From contig JAZQVQ010000121.1 of the NCBI GenBank assembly GCA_045631825.1, positions 1,129 to 65,128 of the forward strand: DNA of 64,000 bases, written 5' to 3'. The notes beneath the pieces were generated by a model that saw nothing but the letters and a program-made list of their open reading frames with translations, searched no databases and was not told where the DNA came from. This DNA is from Eubacteriales bacterium. Its GTDB lineage: Bacteria; Bacillota; Clostridia; Oscillospirales; CAG-382. Every line of letters begins with the position of its first letter. Position 1 is the first letter of the stretch. Both the position numbers and the translations under genes were made by a program. This document shows, piece after piece, positions 3,130 through 50,031 of this stretch.

Positions 3130-3665
3130 GAGACATTTGTGTCGACTTGGAAACGACCAGTACCGACCCGTATCACGGGGCAATCGTGCAAATCGGTGCG
3201 GTTAAATTTGATTTATTCACCGGTGAGGTTGGGGAAACATTCAGCGTTGCGTTGAAAATCCCTAAAAACAGGTTCTGGAGTGAGGGTACTCGTTCCTTTT
3301 GGGGTGAACGCCTCCCACTGTTTAACAGCATAACAGAGAACGCCGTAGAACCGAAAGAAGGGTTTACATCATTCATCGAGTGGGTGCAGAAAACACCAGA
3401 CCCACATTTTTGGGCTAAACCTATTACATTTGATTTTAACTGGGTGCAATCTTACTGCGACCAGTATGATATTAAAATCCCGTTTGCCTTCTGGAAAGCA
3501 CGTGATTTGCGGTCGTTTATGTTGGGTGTGTACGCACCGGAACCTTTACCGAGAATTACAATGAAAGGGTCTCTACTCGAACACGATGCTTTATCGGACG
3601 CTTTGAGTGAGGCGATGTGGGCTATCGAAACTTATCGTGAATTAAGAAAGAGGAAAAACAAATGA
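3126..3665 (+). CDS. DEDDh 3'-5' exonuclease (DnaQ-like)
   Basis: ICVDLETTS (DxE), PITFDFNWV, and HDALSDALSEA (H-x4-D). Confidence 0.75.
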   Translation: MRDICVDLETTSTDPYHGAIVQIGAVKFDLFTGEVGETFSVALKIPKNRFWSEGTRSFWGERLPLFNSITENAVEPKEGFTSFIEWVQKTPDPHFWAKPITFDFNWVQSYCDQYDIKIPFAFWKARDLRSFMLGVYAPEPLPRITMKGSLLEHDALSDALSEAMWAIETYRELRKRKNK

Positions 3666-4114
3666 ACAAATATTATCATTTACACCGAGAGGAATACAAA
3701 AAAACCGCATTGGAGTATTATGAAAAAAACAAAGAAGAAAGGAAAAAGAAGATGAATGAATATTACCAAACCCATAGAGAAGAAATCTTAAAAAAAGCGA
3801 AAGAAAAGAATTCAAAATACATAGCCAAAAGTAAGAAATACAAAACCGAGGAGGGGTTGTGGCGCTTGCTGAACTCTGTCGCAAAGAAAAACAACCTGAT
3901 GATTGGTTATAATGCCGACCGTATTGTTTCGGCAAAACTCCGAATGTTGAAGGATGATTTAAAACGTTGTCCGTGCGACAACAACCCCGAATCGTTGCGT
4001 TGGTGTGGTTCTGAAAAATGTATCACCGAATGTAAACAAAACGGGAAATGTCATTGTGGTTTATTTTATTACAATAAAAACGAGGTAAAAGCCAATGCGA
4101 TTGTTGAAGACTGA
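3662..4114 (+). CDS. hypothetical protein, Lys/Glu-rich N-terminus, Cys-rich C-terminus
   Basis: 150 aa with an internal duplication of a YY..(H/T)REE / YYEKNKEE motif. C-terminal CPCD...CGSEKC..C...GKCHC cluster. Confidence 0.6.
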   Translation: MNKYYHLHREEYKKTALEYYEKNKEERKKKMNEYYQTHREEILKKAKEKNSKYIAKSKKYKTEEGLWRLLNSVAKKNNLMIGYNADRIVSAKLRMLKDDLKRCPCDNNPESLRWCGSEKCITECKQNGKCHCGLFYYNKNEVKANAIVED

Positions 4115-5000
4115 AACTTGTGTGTTGGTTGGGGACATACACCTCGGCCGTACTTTCAAAACGGGTGTCCCATTGGATAGACGTGGTGAGATTGAGGAAA
4201 CTTTCAAAAGTGCTTTTGTAGAAAGTTTGAAGGCGTGTGAAGGGAGGAAATTGTACGTGCAATTAGGTGACCTTTTCGACAATTTCAAAGTACCGTACGA
4301 TTTACTGCTGTGGACTTACGAAACGATTACGGATTACCGCCGTTTGGACTGTGAATATTATTTCATAGCAGGAAATCACGATTTGTCACGTAATCCGGAA
4401 GATGTGTCTGCCATACAGGTGTTGGCTTTGATGTTGGAGTCAATCCCCAACGTTCACTTTGTGTTAAATGATGTTGTGAACTTACCAGCGTTTGGCTTTT
4501 CTTTGGTGCCGTGGAGTTACAGCAAACCCCTTGAGGAATTACTGAAATGTTGTACCACGAACTACATTCTGGGACATTTCGAAGAACCTTTAAATCCGGC
4601 TGTGGTCGCCTCAGATTCAAACTTTATAAGCGGACACATTCATTTACCTCATCTAAACGGGAACGTGAACTTCATAGGTAGTATTTTACCGATAGCATTC
4701 GGCGAAAACGACTGCAACGACGAAGGGATGATTACGGTAACGCTCGATGAACTCGAAGGGATGAAAGAGGAGGATTTGAGTCAGCGCCGTGTTCGGGTTA
4801 TTTTGAAAAACGATGAAACGTTGCCGGCAGACATCAACTGCTTGCAGTTAATCGCCAAAAAAGAAACCTCTGAGGAAGAAGGTGTACAATTAGAAGTTAA
4901 TTTAGAAGAATTTAATTTTGAAGAATTATTTAGAAAATATCTGGGGCCGTCCGGTAAAACAGATGAGTTGTGGGCAAAATATTTACGATTGAAAGGATGA
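4095..5000 (+). CDS. SbcD/Mre11-family nuclease
   Basis: Calcineurin-fold motifs VGDIHLG, LGDLFD, AGNHD, GHFE, GHIHLPH. It is adjacent to a Rad50-like ATPase. Confidence 0.85.
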   Translation: MRLLKTETCVLVGDIHLGRTFKTGVPLDRRGEIEETFKSAFVESLKACEGRKLYVQLGDLFDNFKVPYDLLLWTYETITDYRRLDCEYYFIAGNHDLSRNPEDVSAIQVLALMLESIPNVHFVLNDVVNLPAFGFSLVPWSYSKPLEELLKCCTTNYILGHFEEPLNPAVVASDSNFISGHIHLPHLNGNVNFIGSILPIAFGENDCNDEGMITVTLDELEGMKEEDLSQRRVRVILKNDETLPADINCLQLIAKKETSEEEGVQLEVNLEEFNFEELFRKYLGPSGKTDELWAKYLRLKG

Positions 5001-5007
5001 ATGTATT

Positions 5008-6891
5008 ATGATTAAAAGATTATTATTGGAGAATTTCGTTAAACACGAGCACAGAGAGATAATATTCGAAAAAGGTTTAACCGCTATTTCGGGTAAAAAC
5101 GGTGGTGGGAAATCCTTAATCCAAGAGGCGATTCGTTTTGCTTTGTTCGGAACGGCCGCACTTCGGGGTAAAGTAACCGATTACGATAAACGTTTAAAGG
5201 TGACGATGAGTTGTCAAATCGGGGACAAGGAGTATGAAATCATCCGGACTTTGAAAGACTGCTCGTTCAATGGCGTTGTGGGTACGACTGCTTGCAACAA
5301 GGCTATCGAGGATGTCTTGGGTTTCGGTATGAATGTTTTTGATATGGGTTGTTGCGCTAAGCAGTCTGAAATCACACGTTTGGGTGATATGAAACCGACG
5401 GAACGTAAACAAGCGGTTGACAAACTCATCGGTTTAGATACTTTAGAACTATTGAGAAAAGAAGTAAAGCAAACTATATCTGAATTACGGGGACGTAAAG
5501 AAGGGCTGGAACGATATATGACAGAACCAGTTGAGCCGACAAAACCCCTAGGCTACGTCCCCAGTTCCCAACTCGAAACGGAATTGCGTACGGCGCTCGA
5601 CAATAAAGCAAGACACGACGCTTTAATCGAAACGTTTATGGCTTGTCCGCAAATCCCACCGGTTGAACCCACTTTCGATATGGAAAAACCGGCAGGAGAC
5701 CCCACGACAAAACATTTAAAAAATATGTTAGCCAATACGGTAGCACGACTGCTCGCACTTGGCGCAGACCAACCTTGTCTTGAAGACACCGGTTTGCTCG
5801 AACGTGAATTGGAACATACCCTTGCGTGGGAAAAGTTTTTGGATTTAGAACAACCCACTATGATAGAGGAGGAATGTACTCGAATCGAAGAAGAATGGCT
5901 CGAATACAACTCTTGGTTACGTTCTGAAAAAGTCACGTGTCCGAAATGTGGGGAAACGTTCGCTCTCAGCGGTGTAAGTGAGAAAGAAAAACCGAGCGTT
6001 GATTTAGAGGAAGTGAAAAGACAGAAAGCGTTGATAACACAATGGCGTTTGCGCCCCACCTGTCCGAAACCGACGGGGGAACTGGGACCAGAGCAGTTGC
6101 GTTCTAAAATAGATGCAGTCCGTGAAAAGAGGAAAAACCACGAGGCCTATTTGGAAGTAATTGCTGATTTGGCTAAAATCGAACCCTGTGATTATGATGC
6201 TTGGGATAGATACAACGAAGCGGAAAAGAACTATCGTATCCTGAAAAACAAGTACGACCTCGAACTGCGTGCATATCAACACGGCCAAGAATTGCTGGGT
6301 AAAATAGCAGAGTTGTCTGAAAAGATTAAAGGTGTCGAAATCGAGCAGTTACAAGAACTACACCGGACGTTCTTGCAGTACGAAACAGAACACGCCACCT
6401 ATCTCACGTTGAAGAAACGGTACGACGAGTTGGTGGTCGAACACAACGAACTGGAAAAAGAACTCGAATGTTACACGAAAGCGGACGAAGGTTTGGTTGA
6501 ACTCAAATCGAAAATCAAACTATACGTCATCCCTTCACTGCAAAAGGTGGCGACAGAACTCGTTACCGAAATGACGGAAGGTGAACTCAACGAAATGAAG
6601 ATAACGGAAGATTTCGAAGTCACGTTGAATGGCAAGGAATTAAATCTCTTATCCGGTTCGGAAAAAGCGGTTGCCAATTTGGCGTTGCGTTTGGGTTTAG
6701 GGTGTGTTTTGACACACAAAATCTTCAACGTCTTTTTGGGGGACGAAATCGACGAATCGATGTCGGATGAACGTGCAACGTTAGTGTCCGATTCGTTACA
6801 TAAACTGTTGGGACAAATCAACCAAATTATTCTGATTTCTCATAAAGATATTGTAGCAGACCATTATATTTCTGTTGACAATAAGGAATAA
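5008..6891 (+). CDS. SbcC/Rad50-family ATPase
   Basis: Walker A GKNGGGKS, long coiled coil with a central CPKCG zinc-hook-like motif, signature LSGSEKAVANLALRLG, Walker B FLGDEIDE. Confidence 0.85.
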   Translation: MIKRLLLENFVKHEHREIIFEKGLTAISGKNGGGKSLIQEAIRFALFGTAALRGKVTDYDKRLKVTMSCQIGDKEYEIIRTLKDCSFNGVVGTTACNKAIEDVLGFGMNVFDMGCCAKQSEITRLGDMKPTERKQAVDKLIGLDTLELLRKEVKQTISELRGRKEGLERYMTEPVEPTKPLGYVPSSQLETELRTALDNKARHDALIETFMACPQIPPVEPTFDMEKPAGDPTTKHLKNMLANTVARLLALGADQPCLEDTGLLERELEHTLAWEKFLDLEQPTMIEEECTRIEEEWLEYNSWLRSEKVTCPKCGETFALSGVSEKEKPSVDLEEVKRQKALITQWRLRPTCPKPTGELGPEQLRSKIDAVREKRKNHEAYLEVIADLAKIEPCDYDAWDRYNEAEKNYRILKNKYDLELRAYQHGQELLGKIAELSEKIKGVEIEQLQELHRTFLQYETEHATYLTLKKRYDELVVEHNELEKELECYTKADEGLVELKSKIKLYVIPSLQKVATELVTEMTEGELNEMKITEDFEVTLNGKELNLLSGSEKAVANLALRLGLGCVLTHKIFNVFLGDEIDESMSDERATLVSDSLHKLLGQINQIILISHKDIVADHYISVDNKE

Positions 6892-12386: not shown

Positions 12387-12663
12387 TTTTATTCTCCCGT
12401 TGTTCAATTTTGATTATTTTCTCATTGAGCGATGTTACTGTTGACACAAGCGTTTGGATGGTGCTTTGTAATTCAGCATTTATCTCCTCGGCAGTTTTAG
12501 GCCGAGTTAATATTTTATGCTCGTAAAGCACTTCTTCAAACTTTTTGGCTGTGTCGATTGCTTTCTGGTGTTCGTCCATCACGACTCCCACCTGTTGGTT
12601 TACTTGGTTGAAGATTTTTCCATTCTGGATATATCCCCAAAATAACCCTTGATTTGTTTCCAT
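12301..12663 (-). CDS. hypothetical coiled-coil protein
   Basis: ATG at 12663 is preceded by GGAG at a 7-nt spacing. The 3' end overlaps the next ORF by 86 nt. Confidence 0.5.
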   Translation of the reverse strand: METNQGLFWGYIQNGKIFNQVNQQVGVVMDEHQKAIDTAKKFEEVLYEHKILTRPKTAEEINAELQSTIQTLVSTVTSLNEKIIKIEQRENKNVDKQKSTNDVCQQVSGTRKEPSVKSSL

Positions 12664-37922: not shown

Positions 37923-38393
37923 ATGAGAACGAGTTTATGGGGTTTAGGTCAATTTTTAAAATCTAAAAACATAGATTTCTTGGATAACGAGGGTGGATTC
38001 AAAGAACATTGGGTCTGCGACGAGGGTTGTCCGAGGACACGTTTGAAGATTGTGAAATCAATATTCACCTACTTGGGTCAATCTCTCCAAGATTCGAAAT
38101 ATATTTCCATCCGAAAGAAAAGAACTTGTTTAATCGAGAACTGTGTATGCCCCGACTGTTATACTTTTATAAAAAAAGGAAACGTAACAAAAGGCAATGG
38201 TTGCAGGCTCGGAGAGCAGGATTTAGAAGAACTGTGTGAAGAAATAAACATTGACAGATGTGAAGAAATCGGTTTAGATAGATACTTGGATGAATTCAAT
38301 GAGCAACAGCCTTCATTTCTAAAAATCGGTATGGAAGAATTAAAAGCGGCCATTTTTTATTTAAAAAAGATTGAAAGGAAAAACGAATGGTAA
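37923..38393 (+). CDS. hypothetical Cys-rich protein
   Basis: 156 aa and the first plus-strand gene after the divergent region. GGAATTAGGGG lies upstream. Confidence 0.55.
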   Translation: MRTSLWGLGQFLKSKNIDFLDNEGGFKEHWVCDEGCPRTRLKIVKSIFTYLGQSLQDSKYISIRKKRTCLIENCVCPDCYTFIKKGNVTKGNGCRLGEQDLEELCEEINIDRCEEIGLDRYLDEFNEQQPSFLKIGMEELKAAIFYLKKIERKNEW

Positions 38394-38584
38394 TTGAACA
38401 TAGATACAATTTGTCGCAAACAGCGAAGGAATTGGGTGTCTCTCGTAGGACTCTCTATTATTGGATAGAGAAGGGTTTAATTCCGGAACCGCACAATACT
38501 TTGAGTGGAAACCGGTATTACACGATACAAGAGATTTTAAAAATTAAAGCGAACGATGTGAGCAAGACTGATAAGGAGGATTAA
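38387..38584 (+). CDS. MerR/excisionase-type HTH DNA-binding protein
   Basis: 65 aa. YNLSQTAKELGVSRRTLYYWIEKGLIPEP is a typical winged-HTH signature. Confidence 0.7.
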   Translation: MVIEHRYNLSQTAKELGVSRRTLYYWIEKGLIPEPHNTLSGNRYYTIQEILKIKANDVSKTDKED

Positions 38585-39023: not shown

Positions 39024-41474
39024 ATGATTTTCAAAGAAAATGCGCCGAGATATTGGGCGAAAGGTCTACCTGTCATACCATTGGTAGGAAAGGCACCGGT
39101 ATTGGCTGCGTGGCAGAGGTACAACGATTCGTTACCCAACGAAAAAGAGATGGAGTATATGCTCAAAAACCACGCTGATTGCAATATGGGTTTACCGTTG
39201 GGGAAGCAATCCAGATGTGTTGCGTTAGATATTGACTCGGAGATTGGGTCTGAAATAGCGTTGATTGATGAGTTGATACCGAGTTCACCTTGGATTCGTG
39301 TGGGTAAGAAGGGTAAGGTTGTAATGTTCCGTTACAACGGCGAGAAGACTTTTCGTATCAAAGATGAAAGCGGTCGGACGATTTGTGAACTTTTGTCGAG
39401 CAGAACGCAGGTGGTGTTACCGCCATCCATTCACCCCGACACGAAAGCGCCCTACGTCGCCAACGGTGATTTGGTAGATTTGGTGGATTCGTTACCGGTT
39501 TTACCGCAAAACATCGAGGACATCTTAAGAAACGCCTTTGTGGAACGGTTGGGGTTACGGTTAAATCACGTTGGTTGGACGAAGACGGTTGATTTTGTAT
39601 CTCGTGGTTCACGTGATGTGAAGATGACGAGTGTTGCCGGTCTGTATGCCAATGCGGTTTTGCGTGGTGAGATGACGTTGAAGGAAGCCATTGAGATTTT
39701 CCGTGCGTGGTGTTCTACGCAGACCGAGCAGGTTGCGGGCGACCCGATTGACGTGGAGAAGGGCGTGAGCAATCTCGTAAAATTTTTACTGCGAAACGTC
39801 ATCGGCGAGAAGAAACGTCCTTTACCGACGGGTTGGGACAACGGGCTCACAGCGGACGAGAAAAAGCAGTTAGGTGTTGTGATTGACGAGGATGCGAACG
39901 TATCGTGGGATTTCCCCAAACTGCGTGATTATTTGAAGTCAGCATTCGAGGAATCCAACGGCGATGCGGTTGAGGTTGACCGGATTATTGACTATGCGTT
40001 AGACAAGGTCGCCCGGTCGCAGAGTATGAATTCGTTAGAAGTTGACCGTGCGTTACATCACATTGCCAATTTAACGAAGGATGCGAACGTTCCGGCCCTA
40101 CGCAAGCGTATGTTGGAAATGCAACGTGACGGCATTATGGGTTCGAACCACACGGAGATTGCGAGAGCGGTTTTGAGAGATTTGAACGACATCATACCGG
40201 ATGCGGAAGAGTTCAGCACGCAGAGGGAGTTCAATTCACTGCGGTATTACAACGACGAGTTCTGGCAGTGGGCAGGTTCGCATTGGGAGATGATGAACAA
40301 GAGTGAGATTTTGCGTTTAATTTCGAGGGAGTACGGCAATTTACCTGCGGCAACCCGTGCCAACGACCACAAGGGGATTTTGACGGTTATGAAATCGCAG
40401 TTGTGTACAGATTTAGCGGAGGACAACACTGCCGGGGTTAATTACGCCAACGGTTTTGTGGATGCGTACGGTGTTCTTCACGAACATTCCAAAAAATACG
40501 GATGTACTTACACGTTGCCGTATTGTTACAGACCGGAATTGGCGAGTTTAGAGGCCGCACCCAAGTTTGCACGGTTCTTAAAATCAGTCTGGGGACAGGA
40601 CGAAGATTACGAGGAGAAGGTGCGTGCCTTACGCCAAGTTATCGGTGCGACCATTTTCGGATTAGGACCGTCCTTTGCCCGTGCGATTTTATTGTTTGGG
40701 ATTGGGCAGTCTGGTAAAACGCAACTTTTGACCATTATTTCGAAGTTGTTACCGAGCGAGGCACTCAGTTACGTTACCCCGTACGACTTCGATGACAAGT
40801 TCAAACCGGTCAAATTATCCACTTCACTTTTGAATATTTGTGGGGAATTGGACGAAAAACGGGATATTCCCTCCGCCAATTTCAAACAGGTGGTGGACGG
40901 AAGTGTTATGCAGGGCCAATACAAAGGTCGGGATGTGTTTTCATTCGTACCAAAAGCGACACATTGGTTTGCCTCGAACCATTTACCAAAATCAAAAGAC
41001 ACCACGGAAGGGTTCAATCGGCGCTGGGCTGTGTTCACTTTCAACCGGATGGTGCCAAAAGAAGAAAAAATACGTGGTATCGGGGATATTATCGTAGCCG
41101 AAGAACGGGAAGCCATTTCAGCGTGGGCCATCGGGGCTATGGGTGACTTACATCGCAAGTCTGATTACGATTTACCCAGAAGTCATTACAAAACGGTCGA
41201 GGATATGTGTTCTGAGAACGATAGTCTTTTCTTCTTCCTGACTGCCGACGAAGGTCCTCGGAAAGTGGATGCCGGTGAGGTGGAAATGGAACGCCTATAC
41301 GAGGCTTATCGTGCCTTCTGCTACTCAATCGCCGGGGCCAAACCAATCGGACTGCGTAAATTCTATACCCGTATGCGTGAAATGGGCATAATTATGGGCT
41401 TTGGGGTTAAGCAGTTGGTTGTCGAAGGCCTGAGTCTTGACCGCACGGTCGGTGTTAAACTGGGGAGGGGATGA
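39024..41474 (+). CDS. bifunctional primase-polymerase / D5(P4)-type SF3 helicase
   Basis: 816 aa. N-terminal prim-pol pattern (GLPVIPLVGKAPVLAAWQRY ... VALDIDS ... VVLPPSIHPDT). C-terminal Walker A GIGQSGKT and Walker B-like region. Confidence 0.9.
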   Translation: MIFKENAPRYWAKGLPVIPLVGKAPVLAAWQRYNDSLPNEKEMEYMLKNHADCNMGLPLGKQSRCVALDIDSEIGSEIALIDELIPSSPWIRVGKKGKVVMFRYNGEKTFRIKDESGRTICELLSSRTQVVLPPSIHPDTKAPYVANGDLVDLVDSLPVLPQNIEDILRNAFVERLGLRLNHVGWTKTVDFVSRGSRDVKMTSVAGLYANAVLRGEMTLKEAIEIFRAWCSTQTEQVAGDPIDVEKGVSNLVKFLLRNVIGEKKRPLPTGWDNGLTADEKKQLGVVIDEDANVSWDFPKLRDYLKSAFEESNGDAVEVDRIIDYALDKVARSQSMNSLEVDRALHHIANLTKDANVPALRKRMLEMQRDGIMGSNHTEIARAVLRDLNDIIPDAEEFSTQREFNSLRYYNDEFWQWAGSHWEMMNKSEILRLISREYGNLPAATRANDHKGILTVMKSQLCTDLAEDNTAGVNYANGFVDAYGVLHEHSKKYGCTYTLPYCYRPELASLEAAPKFARFLKSVWGQDEDYEEKVRALRQVIGATIFGLGPSFARAILLFGIGQSGKTQLLTIISKLLPSEALSYVTPYDFDDKFKPVKLSTSLLNICGELDEKRDIPSANFKQVVDGSVMQGQYKGRDVFSFVPKATHWFASNHLPKSKDTTEGFNRRWAVFTFNRMVPKEEKIRGIGDIIVAEEREAISAWAIGAMGDLHRKSDYDLPRSHYKTVEDMCSENDSLFFFLTADEGPRKVDAGEVEMERLYEAYRAFCYSIAGAKPIGLRKFYTRMREMGIIMGFGVKQLVVEGLSLDRTVGVKLGRG

Positions 41475-42372
41475 TGGATAAACGTGAACTGCTCAAAATG
41501 AGTTTTGAGGACAAAGTACAACGCAGTAAAGAGTTGATTTTAGAGTGGTATTTGCAATATCGGGGTAAAGTCTATGTATCGTTTTCCGGTGGGAAGGACT
41601 CAACAGTCCTTCTCCATCTGTGCCGCAGTATCAAAGGTTGCGAAAACGTGGCGGGTGTGTTCTCAGATACCGGGTTGGAATATCCGGAGATTAGGCAGTT
41701 TGTCAAGAAACAAGAAAATATCATTTGGATTAAACCAAAAATGACCTTTAAAGAGGTCATCGAGAAGTACGGCTGGCCCGTCGTGAGCAAAGAAGTCGCT
41801 CAGAAAATCTCAGAAATCCGGAATACGGGCAGTGAGAAACTTCGGAACAAACGCCTTTATGGTGATGAACGAGGGAATGGGAAGTTACCCGCCAAATGGT
41901 TGCCAATGGTGGACGCACCTTTCAAAATCACAAGTAAATGCTGTAATATTATGAAGAAAAACGTTTTTGCGAAGTTTGAGAGAGAGAGAGTGGGTTAAAA
42001 CCAATTTTGGGTGTTATGGCCACTGAAAGCAAATTACGGATGACAAAATTCCTTAAAGGGAATTGTAATGCGTTCAGTTCGGCACATCCAAAGTCTGAAC
42101 CGTTGTCTTTTTGGACAGAGGATGATATTTGGGAATATATCCGTAGATATAATGTGGAAATCTGCGAGGTTTATACCAAATGTGGGTTGAAAAGAACCGG
42201 ATGTATGTTCTGTATGTTCGGTTGTCATTTGGGTGGGGACAAAAGATTTGAGATTATGCGGAGGCAGTGGCCTAAACAATATGCCTATATTATGGATAAG
42301 TTGGGTGGGAGAGCGGTGTTCGAGGAATATATGAGAATTGCACACCTTGAAAATAAAAATAGGGTCGAATAA
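41471..42372 (+). pseudogene. PAPS-reductase-family (PP-loop ATPase) gene interrupted by a frameshift at a (GA)6 tract
   Basis: ORF 41471..41998 carries the PP-loop SFSGGKDS. ORF 42007..42372 (open from 41980) carries the C-terminal half, including a CMFCMFGC cluster. The two frames overlap only across GAGAGAGAGAGAG (41978-41990). Confidence 0.7.
41978..41990 (+). repeat. (GA)6G dinucleotide microsatellite
   Basis: Read directly from the sequence. It is located exactly at the frame switch of the split gene. Confidence 0.95.
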
Positions 42373-42403
42373 AAAATGGGATAGTTTCATCCAAAGGTTG
42401 GTT

Positions 42404-42424
42404 TTTTGTCTAAATTTTTGTCTA
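42404..42424 (+). repeat. TTTTGTCTAA doublet (copy A)
   Basis: TTTTGTCTAAATTTTTGTCTA. A near-identical doublet lies at 46751-46771, and both sit upstream of early promoters. Confidence 0.8.
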
Positions 42425-42435
42425 CCCCCTTATGA

Positions 42436-42449
42436 GAGTCGCAAGACTC
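42436..42449 (+). repeat. hairpin-B family copy (GAGTC-GCAA-GACTC)
   Basis: 5-bp stem with a GNRA loop, downstream of the PAPS-reductase gene. Confidence 0.8.
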
Positions 42450-42496
42450 CGACTTGATAAAAAATCTATTTTTTTTATTTTTTTATAAAATAATGC

Positions 42497-42525
42497 TTGA
42501 CATTAAAACGAAAGTGTGATATAAT
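42497..42525 (+). promoter_or_regulatory. consensus sigma70 promoter P1 with extended -10
   Basis: TTGACA, 17-nt spacer ending in TGA, TATAAT. An A/T-rich UP-like tract lies upstream. Confidence 0.8.
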
Positions 42526-42595: not shown

Positions 42596-43252
42596 ATGAA
42601 AACAAAAAACACAAAAACAACAAAAAACACAAAAAACACAAAAAACACAAAAAAAGAATACACCAACAAAGCTTTAGAAAGCCAGCTAATTTTAATTAGG
42701 AAATCAATCAAAAAAGCAAGGGAAGCTTCGCAAGAATATACAGCTAATTTAATTTACGCTTTTTTACTGGATTCGCAAGAATACAAAAAAACAGAATCCC
42801 GAATCCGTTCCATTTTAGCTGATTCGTTCGGTAATGATTGGCAAGCCGTCAAAGGGTCTGAAAATAGAAAGATTCGCTATGCTAGAATCATTTTTGAATC
42901 AAGAATCGAAGCTTTGAAAAATTGCAAAAATCCAGATGAGGTTTTGCATTATCTGAAAACGAATCAAGAACAGCTGAGTCATTCAAAAGTTTTGAATATC
43001 AATACGAATCAAGCAAGCAAGCAAGCAAGCAAGAAAGCAATCAAGCAAGAAAGCAATCAAGAAAGCAATCAAGAAAGCAAGTCGAATCTTTATGGGAAGA
43101 ATCCGAATCCAGAATCCGAATCAATGGAAGTCATAGCTTTCATCAAGTCAGCTGTGAAAAATCCGAAGCTGTTAGCTTTGATGAATGAAAAGCTAGCCGA
43201 ATCAGGTATCCGAATCCAGTGCATAGCGAATCCGATTCGGAAAGTGGCATAG
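42596..43252 (+). CDS. repeat-rich basic hypothetical protein
   Basis: 218-aa ORF with its own promoter P1 and terminator. It contains KNT repeats (9-nt A-rich units), a period-4 AAGN tract (43011-43082) and a dense GAATC cluster. Confidence 0.55.
   Translation: MKTKNTKTTKNTKNTKNTKKEYTNKALESQLILIRKSIKKAREASQEYTANLIYAFLLDSQEYKKTESRIRSILADSFGNDWQAVKGSENRKIRYARIIFESRIEALKNCKNPDEVLHYLKTNQEQLSHSKVLNINTNQASKQASKKAIKQESNQESNQESKSNLYGKNPNPESESMEVIAFIKSAVKNPKLLALMNEKLAESGIRIQCIANPIRKVA
43011..43082 (+). repeat. period-4 AAGC/AAGA/AATC tract (18 units)
   Basis: AAGCAAGCAAGCAAGCAAGCAAGAAAGCAATC... read directly. It encodes QASKQASKKAIKQESNQESNQESK. Confidence 0.9.
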
Positions 43253-43553: not shown

Positions 43554-43581
43554 TTTTTAGCATTTTTTCTACCTAAAACTC

Positions 43582-43610
43582 TTGACAATACAACAAAAGT
43601 ATGATATAAT
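43582..43610 (+). promoter_or_regulatory. consensus sigma70 promoter P2 with extended -10
   Basis: CTTGACAATACAACAAAAGTATGATATAAT. The upstream TTTTTTCTACCTAAAAC is shared with P4. Confidence 0.85.
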
Positions 43611-43650
43611 CATATCTGTAATCGGGACAACCCGAAACAACTCAACCAAT

Positions 43651-43666
43651 GGAGTCCCGAGACTCC
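43651..43666 (+). repeat. hairpin-B family copy (GGAGTC-CCGA-GACTCC)
   Basis: 28 nt upstream of the ATG at 43695. Confidence 0.9.
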
Positions 43667-43694
43667 AACAACCAACCTGAAAGGAACTAACGCA

Positions 43695-44040: not shown

Positions 44041-44074
44041 AGTTTGGAGTCCCGAGACTCCAAACTGTATTTTT
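44041..44074 (+). terminator. extended hairpin-B copy with T-run (terminator candidate)
   Basis: AGTTTGGAGTC-CCGA-GACTCCAAACT (11-bp stem), then GTATTTTT. Confidence 0.6.
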
Positions 44075-46049: not shown

Positions 46050-46442
46050 ATGATAAAAATCGTAGAAGAAATCGGAATTAGAGAGTTTAAACCTTGGTCG
46101 GGGGCAGTAGACCCCTTCAATGAAATTGAAGAATGTGGCAAACTGGACCAATTTGAGCAGTTGATTGAACAGTTATACCCAGAGGGAATTTCTCGCACTG
46201 GTATCAATGATTGGCTCTGGCACGAAACAGAAAGCCTCTACGAGGCTCTCGGTATGATACGCTCGGAATCTGAACTCCAAGACATCATCACCGACAATGT
46301 CATAGAACCAAACGCTGATTTAGACCAATTTCTCGACTCAGAGGATTTTAACTGCTATGAACGGGACAAAATCAGAACCAATTTTGAGGATTGGGTGGAC
46401 GATTACCAGTTTTTGCACGATTTGGGAAAATATGCCGACTAA
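46050..46442 (+). CDS. strongly acidic hypothetical protein
   Basis: 130 aa, roughly one quarter Asp/Glu by eye, with GAAAGGATAC upstream. Confidence 0.65.
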   Translation: MIKIVEEIGIREFKPWSGAVDPFNEIEECGKLDQFEQLIEQLYPEGISRTGINDWLWHETESLYEALGMIRSESELQDIITDNVIEPNADLDQFLDSEDFNCYERDKIRTNFEDWVDDYQFLHDLGKYAD

Positions 46443-46532
46443 AGTTTGGTAGTATCGGTGGAGGCAGTCGAGAGGTGGGCGTGGGCAGTTTTTGACCAAA
46501 ATTGCCCAAATTAACAAAAGTTGTAATTTTTA

Positions 46533-46724
46533 CACTTAAGAAGCAGAAGTCATTGATTTTATTGAATCTGGTATGTCACTTTACTTTTTCTAACTCGGTT
46601 TCCCTGAAAAAAAATGGGGTAAAAATATATAAAAAGGGTAAAAAATATATATATAAAAGCGAGTTGAAGAATCTTAAGTGACATATCGGATTCAATGTTT
46701 TCAATGACTTACGCTTCTTAAGTG
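46533..46724 (+). repeat. large inverted repeat (49-nt arms, 94-nt AT-rich spacer)
   Basis: Arms 46533-46581 and 46676-46724 pair at 41 Watson-Crick plus 3 G-T positions out of 49. The core contains GGGTAAAAA(A)TATATA twice. Confidence 0.85.
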
Positions 46725-46750
46725 ACATTTTGAGAACCCCAAAATGGCAT

Positions 46751-46771
46751 TTTTGTCTAATTTTTGTCTAA
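46751..46771 (+). repeat. TTTTGTCTAA doublet (copy B)
   Basis: TTTTGTCTAATTTTTGTCTAA. Compare 42404-42424. Confidence 0.8.
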
Positions 46772-46881
46772 AATTACCCATTTTTCATAAACGAAAGTAG
46801 TAAAGTCAACCAAGTGTATAAGCATACCAAAGTTTTAACATCAAAAAATCACAAAAAACTGATTTTTTCTACCTAAAACAC

Positions 46882-46910
46882 TTGACAATACTACAAAAGT
46901 ATGCTATAAT
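46882..46910 (+). promoter_or_regulatory. consensus sigma70 promoter P4 with extended -10
   Basis: CTTGACAATACTACAAAAGTATGCTATAAT. Confidence 0.85.
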
Positions 46911-46918
46911 AAAGGTAT

Positions 46919-46947
46919 CCAAGCAGGAAAAGGGACTCACTGCTTGG
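46919..46947 (+). repeat. 5'-terminal leader hairpin (hairpin C, copy 1)
   Basis: CCAAGCAG-GAAAAGGGACTCA-CTGCTTGG, starting about 8 nt after the -10 of P4. Confidence 0.75.
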
Positions 46948-46986
46948 GTATTTCAATCCAACTGCTTGGGTGGTTCGGATTACACA

Positions 46987-47034
46987 CCCCACAACCCCAC
47001 AACCCAGCAACCCCACAACCCCACAACCCCACAA
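46987..47034 (+). repeat. octamer tandem repeat (CCCCACAA) x6
   Basis: Five exact units plus one CCCAGCAA variant, in the 5' leader of the 47073 gene. The complement is TTGTGGGG x6. Confidence 0.95.
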
Positions 47035-47036
47035 CA

Positions 47037-47050
47037 GAGTCCCGAGACTC
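47037..47050 (+). repeat. hairpin-B family copy
   Basis: GAGTC-CCGA-GACTC, 22 nt upstream of the ATG at 47073. Confidence 0.85.
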
Positions 47051-47072
47051 CAACAGATGAAAGGAAAAGCAA

Positions 47073-47366
47073 ATGAAAACGGAGTATATTTCGCAAGAGA
47101 ACGCAGACAGATTGTATCGGATATTAAACCGTGCAAGTGGTTGTTATTTCAAGGTTTATGACACAGAGTCGCACGTTATTACGACGAGGTTTCCAGAGAA
47201 GTTGATTATGGCGATTGACGGAGGGGACGAGGAGATTCGGATAGAGATTTACGACCACAGCGAGCGTGTATATCGTGGGACATTGTATTTACTGCCGTAT
47301 GAGGAGGATTCGATGCCTTACGATTGGTCTGACAACGCATTTATGGACAAGTTATTAGATTTTTGA
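47073..47366 (+). CDS. hypothetical protein
   Basis: 97-aa ORF with GAAAGGAAAAGCAA upstream. Confidence 0.65.
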   Translation: MKTEYISQENADRLYRILNRASGCYFKVYDTESHVITTRFPEKLIMAIDGGDEEIRIEIYDHSERVYRGTLYLLPYEEDSMPYDWSDNAFMDKLLDF

Positions 47367-47411
47367 GGGCGTAGAAAACTATCTAAACTAAAATGATTTG
47401 TCAAGTAAAAC

Positions 47412-47435
47412 CCACCTCGCCTATCGGCTCGGTGG
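47412..47435 (+). repeat. hairpin-A family copy (CCACC stem, TATC loop)
   Basis: CCACCTCGCC-TATC-GGCTCGGTGG. Confidence 0.85.
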
Positions 47436-47448
47436 AGGAAGATGACAC

Positions 47449-47464
47449 GGAGTCCCGAGACTCC
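47449..47464 (+). repeat. hairpin-B family copy
   Basis: GGAGTC-CCGA-GACTCC, 34 nt upstream of the ATG at 47499. Confidence 0.9.
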
Positions 47465-47498
47465 ACATTACAACTAAAAATTGAGAAAGGAAAATAAA

Positions 47499-47948
47499 AT
47501 GGAAAAAACTATAACATTTAAAATTGATAAGAATCGCAAAGCAGAGATTGAGATTACCTTGGGTGATGAGGGACGGTTTTCTGTCTGTGGTAGTTTGTAT
47601 GAAAAGAATCGGTCCAAATGGGAGTGTGAGTATTGTGGACAATGTTTGGACTCGCTTTCCGAGTTGATTACTGACCCATTATTTACGCAGATTTATTTCT
47701 TATGGAAACGGTATCATTTGAATGATTTGCACGCAGGGACTCCTGTGCAGGAGTATGCGTTGGAACATTCCCCCATTGGTTCTTTGTTGGAAGCTGATTA
47801 CAAACACCGTTGTGAGTATTTAAAATCCATTGGTTTATATGAGGTCAGTGGGTATAAGTATGGACACGGTTGGTTGACTGAAACTATCGAACCACACGAT
47901 TTGGAATTGATAAAAAGCATCGCAACAGGCGAACGCAACCTCGCCTGA
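47499..47948 (+). CDS. hypothetical protein
   Basis: ATG follows GAAAGGAAAATAAA. Its TGA stop lies in the loop of the next hairpin-A copy. Confidence 0.65.
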   Translation: MEKTITFKIDKNRKAEIEITLGDEGRFSVCGSLYEKNRSKWECEYCGQCLDSLSELITDPLFTQIYFLWKRYHLNDLHAGTPVQEYALEHSPIGSLLEADYKHRCEYLKSIGLYEVSGYKYGHGWLTETIEPHDLELIKSIATGERNLA

Positions 47949-47960
47949 CGGCTCGGTTGC
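47935..47960 (+). repeat. hairpin-A family copy (GCAACC stem, TGAC loop)
   Basis: GCAACCTCGCC-TGAC-GGCTCGGTTGC. Confidence 0.85.
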
Positions 47961-47970
47961 TAAATAAAAC

Positions 47971-47986
47971 GGAGTCCCGAGACTCC
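47971..47986 (+). repeat. hairpin-B family copy
   Basis: GGAGTC-CCGA-GACTCC, 23 nt upstream of the ATG at 48010. Confidence 0.9.
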
Positions 47987-48009
47987 AACAACCAAGAAAG
48001 GAAAATAAA

Positions 48010-48357
48010 ATGATTACAGTGCAAATGGAAGAAAGTGATGTTTTGGATTTATTTATCCAGCGTATAAATTATTGGACAACAGACCCAGTCGTTGCCAATT
48101 TATATACCGATATGTATGAAAGATTGCTCGAAGATGGGTGTTTCAATCACACCCAACTGGATATACAGAGAATCGTAGATAACGATTATGTGAATAACTG
48201 CTCAATCATATATTCAGACGACCCAGATTTCGATAAATACTTTAAGATTTACGAGGAACGGGGTGCGTGCGATATATCTGACGAGGATTTATCTTATTCA
48301 TATATCGAATCGGTAGATAATGACGATGAACCAACAATGATGTTGGTGCGTAGATAA
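48010..48357 (+). CDS. acidic hypothetical protein
   Basis: 115-aa ORF with GAAAGGAAAATAAA upstream. Confidence 0.65.
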   Translation: MITVQMEESDVLDLFIQRINYWTTDPVVANLYTDMYERLLEDGCFNHTQLDIQRIVDNDYVNNCSIIYSDDPDFDKYFKIYEERGACDISDEDLSYSYIESVDNDDEPTMMLVRR

Positions 48358-48401
48358 AAAAAAAAACCCGTCAAGTGCTTTTTTATCCGAAAAGCACTTG
48401 A
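48356..48401. other. A10 tract plus 13-bp perfect hairpin that includes the -35 of P5
   Basis: GTCAAGTGCTTTT (48369-81) pairs with AAAAGCACTTGAC (48389-401). Read on the minus strand, this is a hairpin followed by a T-run. Confidence 0.6.
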
Positions 48402-48425
48402 CAATATAACCAAAGTATGCTATAA
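48397..48425 (+). promoter_or_regulatory. consensus sigma70 promoter P5 with extended -10
   Basis: CTTGACAATATAACCAAAGTATGCTATAAT. Confidence 0.85.
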
Positions 48426-48433
48426 TGTATTTA

Positions 48434-48462
48434 TCAAGGCAGGAAAAGGGACTCACTGCTTT
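48434..48462 (+). repeat. 5'-terminal leader hairpin (hairpin C, copy 2)
   Basis: CAAGGCAG-GAAAAGGGACTCA-CTGCTTTG. The 13-nt loop is identical to copy 1, and the stem carries a paired G/T insertion. Confidence 0.7.
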
Positions 48463-48469
48463 GACCGAA

Positions 48470-48493
48470 CCCACCTCGCCTATCGGCTCGGTG
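48470..48493 (+). repeat. hairpin-A family copy
   Basis: CCACCTCGCC-TATC-GGCTCGGTGG. Confidence 0.85.
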
Positions 48494-48500
48494 GAGAACA

Positions 48501-48514
48501 GAGTCCCGAGACTC
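48501..48514 (+). repeat. hairpin-B family copy
   Basis: GAGTC-CCGA-GACTC, flanked on both sides by hairpin-A copies. Confidence 0.85.
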
Positions 48515-48519
48515 AAACA

Positions 48520-48541
48520 CACCTCGCCTATCGGCTCGGTG
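48520..48541 (+). repeat. hairpin-A family copy (shortened outer stem)
   Basis: CACCTCGCC-TATC-GGCTCGGTG. Confidence 0.8.
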
Positions 48542-48562
48542 GAAGAATGAAAGGAAATTACA

Positions 48563-49054
48563 ATGAGAGAATCAACAAAATATAATAAAATCATCGGTAT
48601 TGCGAATGGTTCGGTTTATGTGTTAGAAGAAACCTTTACATACTCTGGCGAGTTTAAAGGTTGCTGTGGATACACAATGTCCACGATTTCGCAGGATTAT
48701 ATTGACGAACGCAATGATGTCGATTGGTTGTGCGATAATTATGATTATGTATGGCGTGAGGCTGTGCAAGCACAGCAAACAACAATGGGTCTTGAGGATT
48801 TTATGGACGATTGGGTGCGTAATTGTTGTGAGTTGTTTCCGACAGACGACTCCTCGTTTCGTATGGATTTCGAACAAGCGTTGGAAGATGCTCGTCCAGA
48901 GGTTGCCAAAAAAGTTATTGAGTATTTTGGTGCTGACAGCGAGGATTTTGGTGCTTGGAACAACGAGGGTTGTGGGCGTTGTTTTCACAAAGATATGGAA
49001 TGGGACGAATTGTTTGAACCAGAACTTTGGGAAATGATTCGTGCTACCGAATAG
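48563..49054 (+). CDS. acidic, Cys-containing hypothetical protein
   Basis: 163-aa ORF with GAAAGGAAATTACA upstream. Confidence 0.65.
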   Translation: MRESTKYNKIIGIANGSVYVLEETFTYSGEFKGCCGYTMSTISQDYIDERNDVDWLCDNYDYVWREAVQAQQTTMGLEDFMDDWVRNCCELFPTDDSSFRMDFEQALEDARPEVAKKVIEYFGADSEDFGAWNNEGCGRCFHKDMEWDELFEPELWEMIRATE

Positions 49055-49060
49055 ATGAAC

Positions 49061-49086
49061 GCAACCTCGCCTGACGGCTCGGTTGC
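49061..49086 (+). repeat. hairpin-A family copy (GCAACC stem, TGAC loop)
   Basis: The 35-nt block GAACGCAACCTCGCCTGACGGCTCGGTTGCTAAAT is identical to 47931-47965. Confidence 0.85.
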
Positions 49087-49100
49087 TAAATGAAAAACTC

Positions 49101-49123
49101 GGAGTCCCGAGTCTCGGGACTCC
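49101..49123 (+). repeat. expanded hairpin-B variant (23-nt perfect palindrome)
   Basis: GGAGTCCCGAG-T-CTCGGGACTCC, 23 nt upstream of the ATG at 49147. Confidence 0.9.
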
Positions 49124-49146
49124 ATAACACAAGAAAGGAAAATAAA

Positions 49147-49740
49147 ATGAAAACAGTAAATTACACGAATTTGTCAACAGCAATTTTTCAAGGGTTTTAT
49201 GAATCAAACTTGTATAATGCTGATAGCGAATACTATGCTAGAGAATACTTGGGGGAAGATTGCGAACTGCAAGATTTTAAAGGTTTTTGTAATAAGGTAG
49301 CCAAAAAGGCAGGCGATTTGTTGCACGAACAGGTTGTGTGGGACGACTCGCTTATCCAACGGATTGATTTCGTTGAGTTAGATAGTCCAGAGTTTTACAA
49401 TTACCGAACGGACCGATTGGTTTTGTCTGTTGATGTAGACACGGACGGTTTAGAGGAGTATTGCTTTGAAGAACACGCCGAAAAGTTTGCGAAGTATTTG
49501 GAAGATAATTTTACTTCTTATGACGGTTTCCATTCGTTTATTCGCAACACGCTCGGTGGTTTCAAGGAACAGTATGTTGAGGAAGATAAAAAGGGTCGCT
49601 GTTTGGATGTAATGATTGAGTTTTATATCTTACAAAACATCGATTTGGATTCGTATCAACTGGCTTTGGTTGAGTGTGCGAATGAAGAACTTTATAACTA
49701 TATGACAACCACCTCGCCTGACGGCTCGGTGGAGAACTGA
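49147..49740 (+). CDS. acidic hypothetical protein
   Basis: ATG follows GAAAGGAAAATAAA. The C-terminal codons TTSPDGSVEN are encoded by a hairpin-A copy. Confidence 0.65.
   Translation: MKTVNYTNLSTAIFQGFYESNLYNADSEYYAREYLGEDCELQDFKGFCNKVAKKAGDLLHEQVVWDDSLIQRIDFVELDSPEFYNYRTDRLVLSVDVDTDGLEEYCFEEHAEKFAKYLEDNFTSYDGFHSFIRNTLGGFKEQYVEEDKKGRCLDVMIEFYILQNIDLDSYQLALVECANEELYNYMTTTSPDGSVEN
49709..49732 (+). repeat. hairpin-A family copy (CCACC stem, TGAC loop) inside a CDS 3' end
   Basis: CCACCTCGCC-TGAC-GGCTCGGTGG. Confidence 0.85.
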
Positions 49741-49752
49741 AAGGAAAATAAA

Positions 49753-50031
49753 ATGAAAAATATACCGACAATTAGTTATGGTTTAATGGCAGAAGTTGTC
49801 AGAACCATTGAACACTTAAAAACTTTTAACTTTACCGATTTATCCGAAGTATCAGAACGACTTGATGTTTATGATTTTGGTGAGTATTATTGTGATTTCA
49901 CATTTTCATTGGGTGATTCGGAAATCGTGATTGAGGGAAGTTATTATATCGGGGATAAGGGTAACATAACTCTTTCCGATTGCTTTTCCGTATTTAATTC
50001 AGAAGCAGAACTTTTGTTGGAGGTAGATTAA
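49753..50031 (+). CDS. hypothetical protein
   Basis: 92-aa ORF with GAAAGGAAAATAAA upstream. Confidence 0.6.
   Translation: MKNIPTISYGLMAEVVRTIEHLKTFNFTDLSEVSERLDVYDFGEYYCDFTFSLGDSEIVIEGSYYIGDKGNITLSDCFSVFNSEAELLLEVD

Follow-up and report, generated by a model that had tools for sequence, protein, structure and literature searches.

What purpose does a long inverted repeat serve in the largest non-coding gap of a phage early arm? This question is raised by a 64,000-nt stretch of contig JAZQVQ010000121.1 (hereafter the window), which comprises most of one phage genome and in which an earlier note had described such a repeat around an AT-rich centre, proposing a replication origin or DNA-unwinding element, a structured RNA, or a mobile insertion. 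Our comparison with cultured relatives suggests a reading that the note overlooked and that has direct comparative support, namely that the element marks the boundary of a long direct terminal repeat (DTR), as a physical end or an end-processing site. In three cultured phages of the same group, the DTR boundary lies in or beside an inverted repeat of this kind.

Structure of the inverted repeat and its phage context

A recount of the two 49-nt arms (46533-46581 and 46676-46724) gave exactly the 41 Watson-Crick and 3 G-T positions of 49 described earlier, the remaining positions being one A-C and four others. The inverted repeat extends inward to arms of 69 nt, in which 54 Watson-Crick and 5 G-T pairs were counted (78% complementary) and which are 54 nt apart (Table 1). 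The centre was AT-rich as described, since the 94 nt between the 49-nt arms had a GC content of 25.5% and the 54-nt core one of 20.4%, compared with 40% for the window. The smaller features of the earlier description were likewise found in place: GGGTAAAAA(A)TATATA twice in the core (46611-46630 and 46631-46650), TCTTAAGTGACAT at 46672 and 46716, the further hairpin with stem halves at 46482-46492 and 46498-46508, and the ATTTTTGTCTA doublet at 46749-46770. A 20-nt direct repeat, TTTTTGACCAAAATTGCCCA, was also observed, with 85% identity between its left (46489-46508) and right (46761-46780) copies. In the metagenomic relative L001, the stretch matching the 46482-46508 hairpin forms the outermost part of the long inverted repeat.

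No other inverted repeat in the window combined a perfect stem of 12 nt or more with a spacer of 30-260 nt. Folding of the 211-nt unit gave -81.2 kcal/mol for the + strand as RNA (z = -11.6; none of 200 shuffles was equal), -64.9 kcal/mol for the - strand as RNA (z = -10), and -45.2 kcal/mol for single-stranded DNA (z = -9.5). The segment described in the earlier note as 440 bp is indeed gene-free, but the true gap is 630 nt (46443-47072), because the upstream open reading frame (ORF) stops at 46442 and the next ORF preceded by a ribosome-binding site (RBS) starts at 47073. It was as part of this 630-nt gap, and for the + strand arm, that the segment proved to be the largest non-coding gap. 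The additional part, 46882-47072, consists of a sigma-70 promoter matching the consensus at 12 of 12 positions, followed by a 5' leader.

The structural genes and a lambda-gpA-type large terminase are encoded on the - strand (7001-37800). The + strand encodes a P4-family Prim-Pol/SF3 primase-helicase (39024-41474), a helicase, a family-A polymerase, methyltransferases, and an SbcCD-like nuclease pair (4095-6891), as well as numerous small early genes that follow consensus promoters. A small HTH_17 protein is encoded next to the primase (38387-38584). The best cultured matches of the primase (31-45% identity), the large terminase (33-39%), and the SbcD-like nuclease (27-30%) coincided in the siphoviruses JWF, 2-1, Seuss, Lumi, EAb13, Mystique, and KB12-38. 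The window phage and the inspected cultured relatives, including EAb13, also have their terminase and primase genes in the same divergent order. The window phage thus belongs to the Seuss/JWF/EAb13-like group by its homologous terminase, P4-type primase, SbcD-like nuclease, and divergent gene order, and one of its non-coding gaps, a few kb past the primase, likewise holds an AT-enriched spacer bracketed by an inverted repeat. Remoter terminase matches were found in Staphylococcus, Bacillus, and Listeria phages, which we take to be the long-DTR SPO1/Twort group.

When the segment was compared by blastn with 50,697 phage records, no match was returned. Close relatives were found via protein searches only, mainly in pig-gut metagenome assemblies, and samples that contain them include ERR1135298 / ERZ940877, ERZ27316867, SRR30201822, SRR30201808, and SRR22185082; searches of IMG/VR with the two flanking proteins and the primase yielded no relatives, and an exact look-up of the upstream protein returned no record. 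A Firmicute is the probable host, to judge from the consensus promoters, the ribosome-binding sites, and the derivation of the related contigs from pig gut.

Terminal-repeat boundaries in cultured relatives and conservation of the element

The DTRs of EAb13, JWF, Lumi, and Seuss are 1.5-2.3 kb in length and start just downstream of the primase in all four phages. That of EAb13 is 2177 bp, starting 362 nt past the primase stop, and that of Lumi is 2298 bp; both were mapped with PhageTerm (PMC10508131 and PMC9959647, respectively). The DTR of JWF is 1466 bp, and identical ends were confirmed in the records of these three phages. For Seuss, a DTR of 1748 bp is given by the record annotation. The boundary compared in each phage was the DTR edge facing away from the primase.

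In EAb13, this distal boundary lies 2 nt before the second of two 50-nt arms (78% complementary), which enclose an 89-nt spacer of 24% GC, and C/A-rich ACCCGAACCCCAACC repeats come after the inverted repeat. The Seuss boundary lies 8 nt from an arm (arms paired at 13 of 13 positions; 86-nt spacer of 27% GC in a locus of 61% GC), and the JWF boundary falls within the 83-nt spacer between arms paired at 17 of 19 positions. Comparable inverted repeats numbered one in 10 kb of Seuss and two in 14 kb of JWF, and no other was present in 15 kb of EAb13. From this rarity in the stretches examined, the chance of a boundary landing in such a repeat was roughly estimated at ~1-2% per phage, so that three boundary coincidences are very unlikely to have arisen by chance. 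The window shares with EAb13, JWF, and Lumi the placement of the element in an early-arm non-coding gap of ~1 kb. Between EAb13 and Mystique, the left arm and the core are 100% identical, and the flanks diverge.

Among the metagenomic relatives, the palindrome was found downstream of the same 130-aa gene in L001, L118, L119, L120, and L004 (a partial contig), and at the equivalent place of the early arm in L123, where the 130-aa gene was not identified. The inner arms and the core could be aligned in the close relatives. In L120, whose primase is 92% identical to that of the window, the arms are 73 nt long and 89% paired, with outer halves unrelated in sequence to those of the window. The arms of L001 are 95 nt long and paired at 80%, and those of L123 (primase 70% identical) are 91 nt long, paired at 71%, wholly different in sequence, and separated by a 118-nt A-rich core. 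Changes on both sides with pairing retained were observed at nine aligned pairs. One four-base block reads TTTT/AAAA in L001 and AAAT/GTTT in L118, and is mismatched in the window (TTTT/GTTT). The outer stem is poorly paired in L118 and L119. As far as these alignments indicate, what evolution keeps is the pairing of the arms and not their sequence. The core of L126 is still recognisably like that of the window (…GGGTATATATAAAAAAGCG…).

Next to the element, the motif TTTTGTCYA also recurs in relatives whose primases are as little as 52% identical (L123, L126, L127, and L138; primases 52-70%). Its sites are usually doublets (12670/12706 and 15319/15502/15514 in L123, 15723/15743 in L126, 14548/14568 in L127, and 14848-15510 in L138), and those of the window lie at 42402-42424 and 46749-46770. 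The motif is absent from L120, although this relative keeps the palindrome and has a 92% identical primase. Clusters of this kind are to be expected where a conserved DNA-binding protein acts, and an origin or a packaging-recognition site could likewise account for them.

Other short repeats were observed near the element. C/A-rich tandem repeats follow the palindrome at a distance of 70-260 nt in three phages that otherwise differ greatly (the window, 46986-47035, CCCCACAA x6; EAb13, listed as L130, 2297-2427; L123, 15785-15870). Arrays of four to six GTTAAC palindromes with a 10-11 nt period (L001, 3055-3110; L118, 975-1045) are inserted between the palindrome and the early promoter in these two relatives, and the window is without them. 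In L123, TTAGGG-like G-rich repeats stand just past the primase (12455-12530).

Predicted terminal-repeat boundary and alternative functions

The structure of the element, its conservation, and the coincidence of boundary and inverted repeat in the cultured relatives are observations. From them, we tentatively propose that the palindrome with its AT-rich core is a DNA-level cis element fixing the primase-distal boundary of a ~4-kb DTR, a proposal to which we give slightly less than even weight. This reading is put forward because the window element matches the cultured boundary elements in anatomy and relative position; the non-coding gap that contains it is the largest in the early arm and lies a few kb beyond the primase, and C/A-rich repeats come after it. 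That the window phage has a DTR at all, that this DTR ends at the palindrome, and how it would be cut are inferred. The AT-rich core is predicted to hold the distal boundary by its position relative to those of EAb13, Seuss, and JWF. A candidate for the primase-proximal boundary is the gap at 42373-42525, by analogy with EAb13, JWF, Lumi, and Seuss, which would give a DTR of ~4.2 kb. The predicted repeat contains small genes behind host-type promoters.

The phage would replicate as concatemers, from which unit genomes would be packaged with a ~4-kb repeat at each end, spanning from the gap after the primase module (~42.4 kb) to the palindrome core (~46.6 kb). The right end of the packaged DNA would be cut or nicked within the AT-rich core. 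The arms are expected to act via their pairing rather than their sequence, perhaps by extruding as a hairpin or cruciform that would offer the easily melted core to the terminase or to a structure-specific nuclease; the SbcCD-like nuclease found throughout the group is, speculatively, a candidate partner. Alternatively, the arms may provide a fold-back primer by which the single repeat copy at the concatemer junction would be duplicated, as has been proposed for T7.

A broader and more doubtful generalization, which we consider somewhat unlikely, is that a widespread, undescribed group of ~70-85 kb siphoviruses defines the end of its long DTR by DNA shape and not by sequence. This group may comprise Firmicute-type gut phages and Proteobacterial phages that share the terminase, the P4-type primase, and the SbcCD-like nuclease. 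The terminase, or a palindrome-specific nuclease of the phage, would then cut a hairpin or cruciform whose loop is AT-rich, and an end defined in this manner would explain why the arms evolve freely yet stay complementary. We found no description in the literature of an inverted repeat at the DTR boundaries of this phage group.

Several points weigh against the DTR boundary. The bracketing repeat of Lumi is weak, with 30-nt arms complementary at 70% and an 11-nt hairpin 26 nt from the boundary, and among the metagenomic relatives, L126 has a degenerate form of the long inverted repeat and none was found in L127, L138, and L139. For the window phage and its metagenomic relatives, the DTR is a prediction from assemblies, and the element had no DNA similarity to the reference phages. 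Since the proteins encoded within the EAb13 DTR have no detectable similarity to the window proteins at the equivalent place, the synteny between the two phages is positional only. The predicted repeat of ~4.2 kb is also about twice the length of those in the cultured relatives. The ends of metagenomic contigs near this region carry no sign of a terminus. Four long contigs stop less than 6 kb past the primase, each time in the middle of a gene and probably owing to strain variation, and contig ends were dropped as a proxy for physical termini. In addition, the repeats and the AT-rich tract suit an origin equally, the TTTTGTCYA clusters of the relatives would fit an origin as well, and the sequence upstream of two early promoters can be aligned with the doublet. 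Finally, the sense strand folds better in 10 of 11 elements, a bias not predicted by a role purely in double-stranded DNA; it may stem from a function as RNA or as a single strand, or from a C-to-T bias of the coding strand. The DTR-boundary, origin, RNA, and other readings are not mutually exclusive. On balance, the element is best explained as a real and conserved variant of a terminal-repeat boundary or end-processing site.

Of the functions proposed in the earlier note, the origin or DNA-unwinding element and the structured RNA or RNase III substrate are compatible with the data, and neither is specifically supported. In an origin, the repeats would bind an initiator (the P4-type primase-helicase or a small helix-turn-helix protein), the core would be the unwinding element, and the arms would either place binding sites symmetrically or extrude as a cruciform. 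The core at 20% GC in a window of 40% would supply the easily melted tract, and the palindrome is flanked by motifs that recur every 11 nt (in the window the TTTTTGTCTA doublet, in L001 and L118 the GTTAAC-N5 arrays). TTTTGTCYA clusters occupy this non-coding region in the four distant relatives named above, and a second cluster just past the primase module, in the window and in L123, makes an arrangement that recalls the ori and crr pair of phage P4. Repeats with an AT-rich tract are moreover a general hallmark of origins (reference cited in PMC7145576). The absence of TTTTGTCYA from L120 despite its near-identical primase argues against these repeats as primase binding sites, and the alignment of the doublet upstream of two early promoters means that it may instead be a transcriptional module. 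The cumulative GC skew tracks the direction of transcription and is uninformative here, and an origin would leave unexplained why the DTR boundaries of the cultured relatives lie in the equivalent structure. We regard an origin as unlikely, although it could coexist with a role in end formation. A role in the RNA, as the transcribed 3' end of the upstream early operon with the ~70-bp stem acting as an RNase III site, a 3' stabiliser, or a polymerase pause site, appears distinctly unlikely. Folding predicts the long, near-continuous stem of an RNase III substrate, and transcription through it is deduced from the absence of a terminator between the gene ending at 46442 and the palindrome. The + strand is the more stable of the two in the window, as is the sense strand in 10 of the 11 elements, including those of EAb13 and Seuss, and some pairs are altered on both sides with pairing kept. 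The earlier argument that G-U pairs point to a plus-sense RNA holds numerically in this respect but is not decisive, because a C-to-T mutation bias of the coding strand would give the same asymmetry, and the GC skew is positive across the arm. Furthermore, the asymmetry is reversed in L126, the outer stem of L118 and L119 is poorly paired, and a scan with Rfam 15 gave no family match (best score 34 bits against a gathering score of 140, all matches being plant microRNA hairpins); a tRNA scan likewise found none. The link to DTR boundaries is not predicted by an RNA role, unless a pause in transcription recruits the packaging machinery.

Control of transcription, in which the palindrome and flanking repeats would be operators or bent DNA that regulates or insulates the promoter at 46882, is quite improbable in our view. 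The regions 42402-42525 and 46749-46910 do share a layout of a doublet, 70-110 nt, and a consensus promoter; two perfect 18-bp palindromes, CTTGACAATNTTGTCAAG, flank the degenerate element of L126 (15414-15442 and 15698-15728); and phased A-tracts precede the first early promoter of L123. However, the palindrome of L123 is not followed by a consensus promoter, arms of 69-95 nt far exceed any operator, and it is the pairing and not the arm sequence that is conserved. An insertion resembling a miniature inverted-repeat transposable element (MITE), or a simple intrinsic terminator, is scarcely credible, and both were rejected. Terminal inverted repeats are present, L120 has a 17-nt direct repeat (ATATAACCAAAGT-ATA) immediately next to the palindrome on either side, and the 20-nt direct repeat of the window lies 18-30 nt outside each end. 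Yet direct repeats adjoin the terminal inverted repeats only in L120, the element has one copy in the window and no match in the phage records, and its syntenic position is the same in all relatives. When JGI metagenomes, IMG/VR, and GTDB genomes were scanned with 19-mers, 112 loci were obtained, all of them chance matches by local BLAST, and a gapped core pattern found nothing in IMG/VR. The element is thus not recently mobile, which bears out the doubt that the earlier note had raised about a mobile insertion. As for a terminator, the scan found none, and no T-run follows the stem in the window or in any relative (the 3' arm is followed by ACATTTTGAG in the window and by GTAAAAYCGA in relatives). 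A hairpin telomere of the N15 type was rejected as well, because the centre is a non-palindromic core of 54-118 nt and not a continuous palindrome; no protelomerase was found among the proteins scanned, most ORFs not being included in that scan.

Features of the locus and comparison with known systems

The features of the locus are collected in Table 1. The gap at 42373-42525 contains the only other TTTTTGTCTA doublet of the window, with its consensus promoter ~75 nt beyond the doublet.

Table 1 Positions of the inverted repeat and surrounding features in the window.
Feature	Positions	Strand	Remarks
First non-coding gap past the primase / PAPS-reductase genes	42373-42525	+	TTTTTGTCTA doublet (42402-42424), AT-rich tract, consensus promoter (42497-42525); candidate primase-proximal boundary
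Small hairpin, 11-bp stem	46482-46508	+	Overlaps left copy of the 20-nt direct repeat
Left arm	46533-46601		Two ATTGA sub-repeats; conserved in L001, L118, L119, and L004
AT-rich core, 20% GC	46602-46655		Tandem pair GGGTAAAAATATAT / GGGTAAAAAATATAT at 46611-46650; predicted distal boundary
Right arm	46656-46724		TCTTAAGTGACAT x2
ATTTTTGTCTA doublet, 11-nt period, and right copy of the 20-nt direct repeat	46749-46780	+	
Consensus sigma-70 promoter, TTGACA, 17 nt, TG-n-TATAAT, 12/12	46882-46910	+	Early-promoter family with conserved flanks
5' leader of the next early gene	46916-47053	+	Hairpin (46916-46950), ACTGCTTGGGT repeats, CCCCACAA x6 (46986-47035), GAGTCCCGAGACTC hairpin

The promoter downstream of the element belongs to a family of near-consensus sigma-70 promoters with conserved flanks (42497-42525, 43557-43645, 46857-46945, and 48373-48461), in two of which a downstream hairpin, CCAAGCAG...CTGCTTGG, is conserved. 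The ACTGCTTGGGT unit of the leader is present in five or six copies in L001. A hairpin with a 6-bp stem, GGAGTC-CCGA-GACTCC, occurs in ~10 copies between 42436 and 51731, each just upstream of an early-gene RBS (for example at 43650-43668, 44045-44063, 47035-47053, and 47970-47988), and could serve to stabilise the 5' end of the mRNA, to direct processing, or to bind a protein. The imperfect hairpin CACCTCGCCTATCGGCTCGGTGG was found in five to seven copies between early genes (47400-49756) and also in L001 (3500-3640).

Next to the primase, a PAPS-reductase-like gene is divided into two ORFs in the window (41471-41998 and 42007-42372) and is a single 298-aa gene in L120, L121, and L122; the split may reflect a frameshift, a sequencing error, or a pseudogene. 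In the gene that comes first past the primase module (42596-43252), in-frame simple repeats were observed, namely six copies of ACAAAAAAC at the start and CAAGCAAG / CAAGAAAGCAAG at 43010-43081. In L138, whose primase is 52% identical, an IS605 OrfB / TnpB (Cas12f-like) gene lies within the structural module (183-1352).

Outside T7, little is understood of how phages with long terminal repeats choose and duplicate their ends. If the element is an end-determining signal, an inverted repeat around an AT-rich spacer downstream of the primase would provide a sequence-independent rule by which the termini of uncultured group members could be predicted from assemblies alone. It would also offer a testable cis element for packaging studies and a possible natural substrate of a phage-encoded SbcCD-like nuclease. 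The case further advises caution against calling every AT-rich phage stretch with repeats a replication origin.

The closest parallels are the boundaries of EAb13, Mystique, Seuss, JWF, and Lumi, where an inverted repeat likewise brackets an AT-enriched spacer (83-89 nt). Except in Seuss, the placement of this element also agrees with that in the window: a large non-coding stretch of the early arm, a few kb beyond the primase. The arms of the window phage and its relatives are longer than those of the cultured phages (69-95 nt versus 13-50 nt), and the elements have no sequence similarity to each other. The cultured boundaries were mapped, annotated, or read from identical record ends, whereas the window termini are predicted.

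Origins composed of repeats and an AT-rich tract include the P4 ori and crr, the ori of staphylococcal pathogenicity islands (SaPI), and the palindromes of oriL and oriS of herpes simplex virus (HSV) with their AT-rich centre. The window element resembles these in its AT-rich centre flanked by symmetric repeats, in the P4-family primase-helicase nearby, and in the two motif clusters ~4 kb apart. It differs in that the likeness is one of sequence features, and in the absence of the motif from L120 despite its near-identical primase.

For T7, Chung, Nardone and Hinkle (1990) reportedly located a hairpin at an imperfect inverted repeat close to the right end. T7 genomes are joined via a single shared terminal repeat, and a hairpin containing this repeat, seen during infection, supports a model of fold-back or primed duplication (PMC4281155). 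The window phage would be similar to T7 in having a single shared repeat to be duplicated in processing. It differs from T7, a podovirus with its own RNA polymerase and a 160-bp repeat, in that the terminases are unrelated and the palindrome is positioned differently relative to the repeat.

In the Twort-like staphylococcal phages, 12-bp inverted repeats mark the ends of the non-redundant genome (PMC7596081). The 12-mer TGTTTAACCTTT of JWF, which occurs in inverted orientation 25-54 nt outside both DTR boundaries (L128, ~1491-1502; L131, ~3482-3493), is comparable to these border repeats, whereas the window has both arms at one boundary, 54 nt apart. The terminal repeats of Twort-like phages such as phage K carry the earliest genes behind host-type promoters (PMC11598898), and the predicted repeat of the window phage, full of small genes behind promoters of the same type, would resemble that of phage K.

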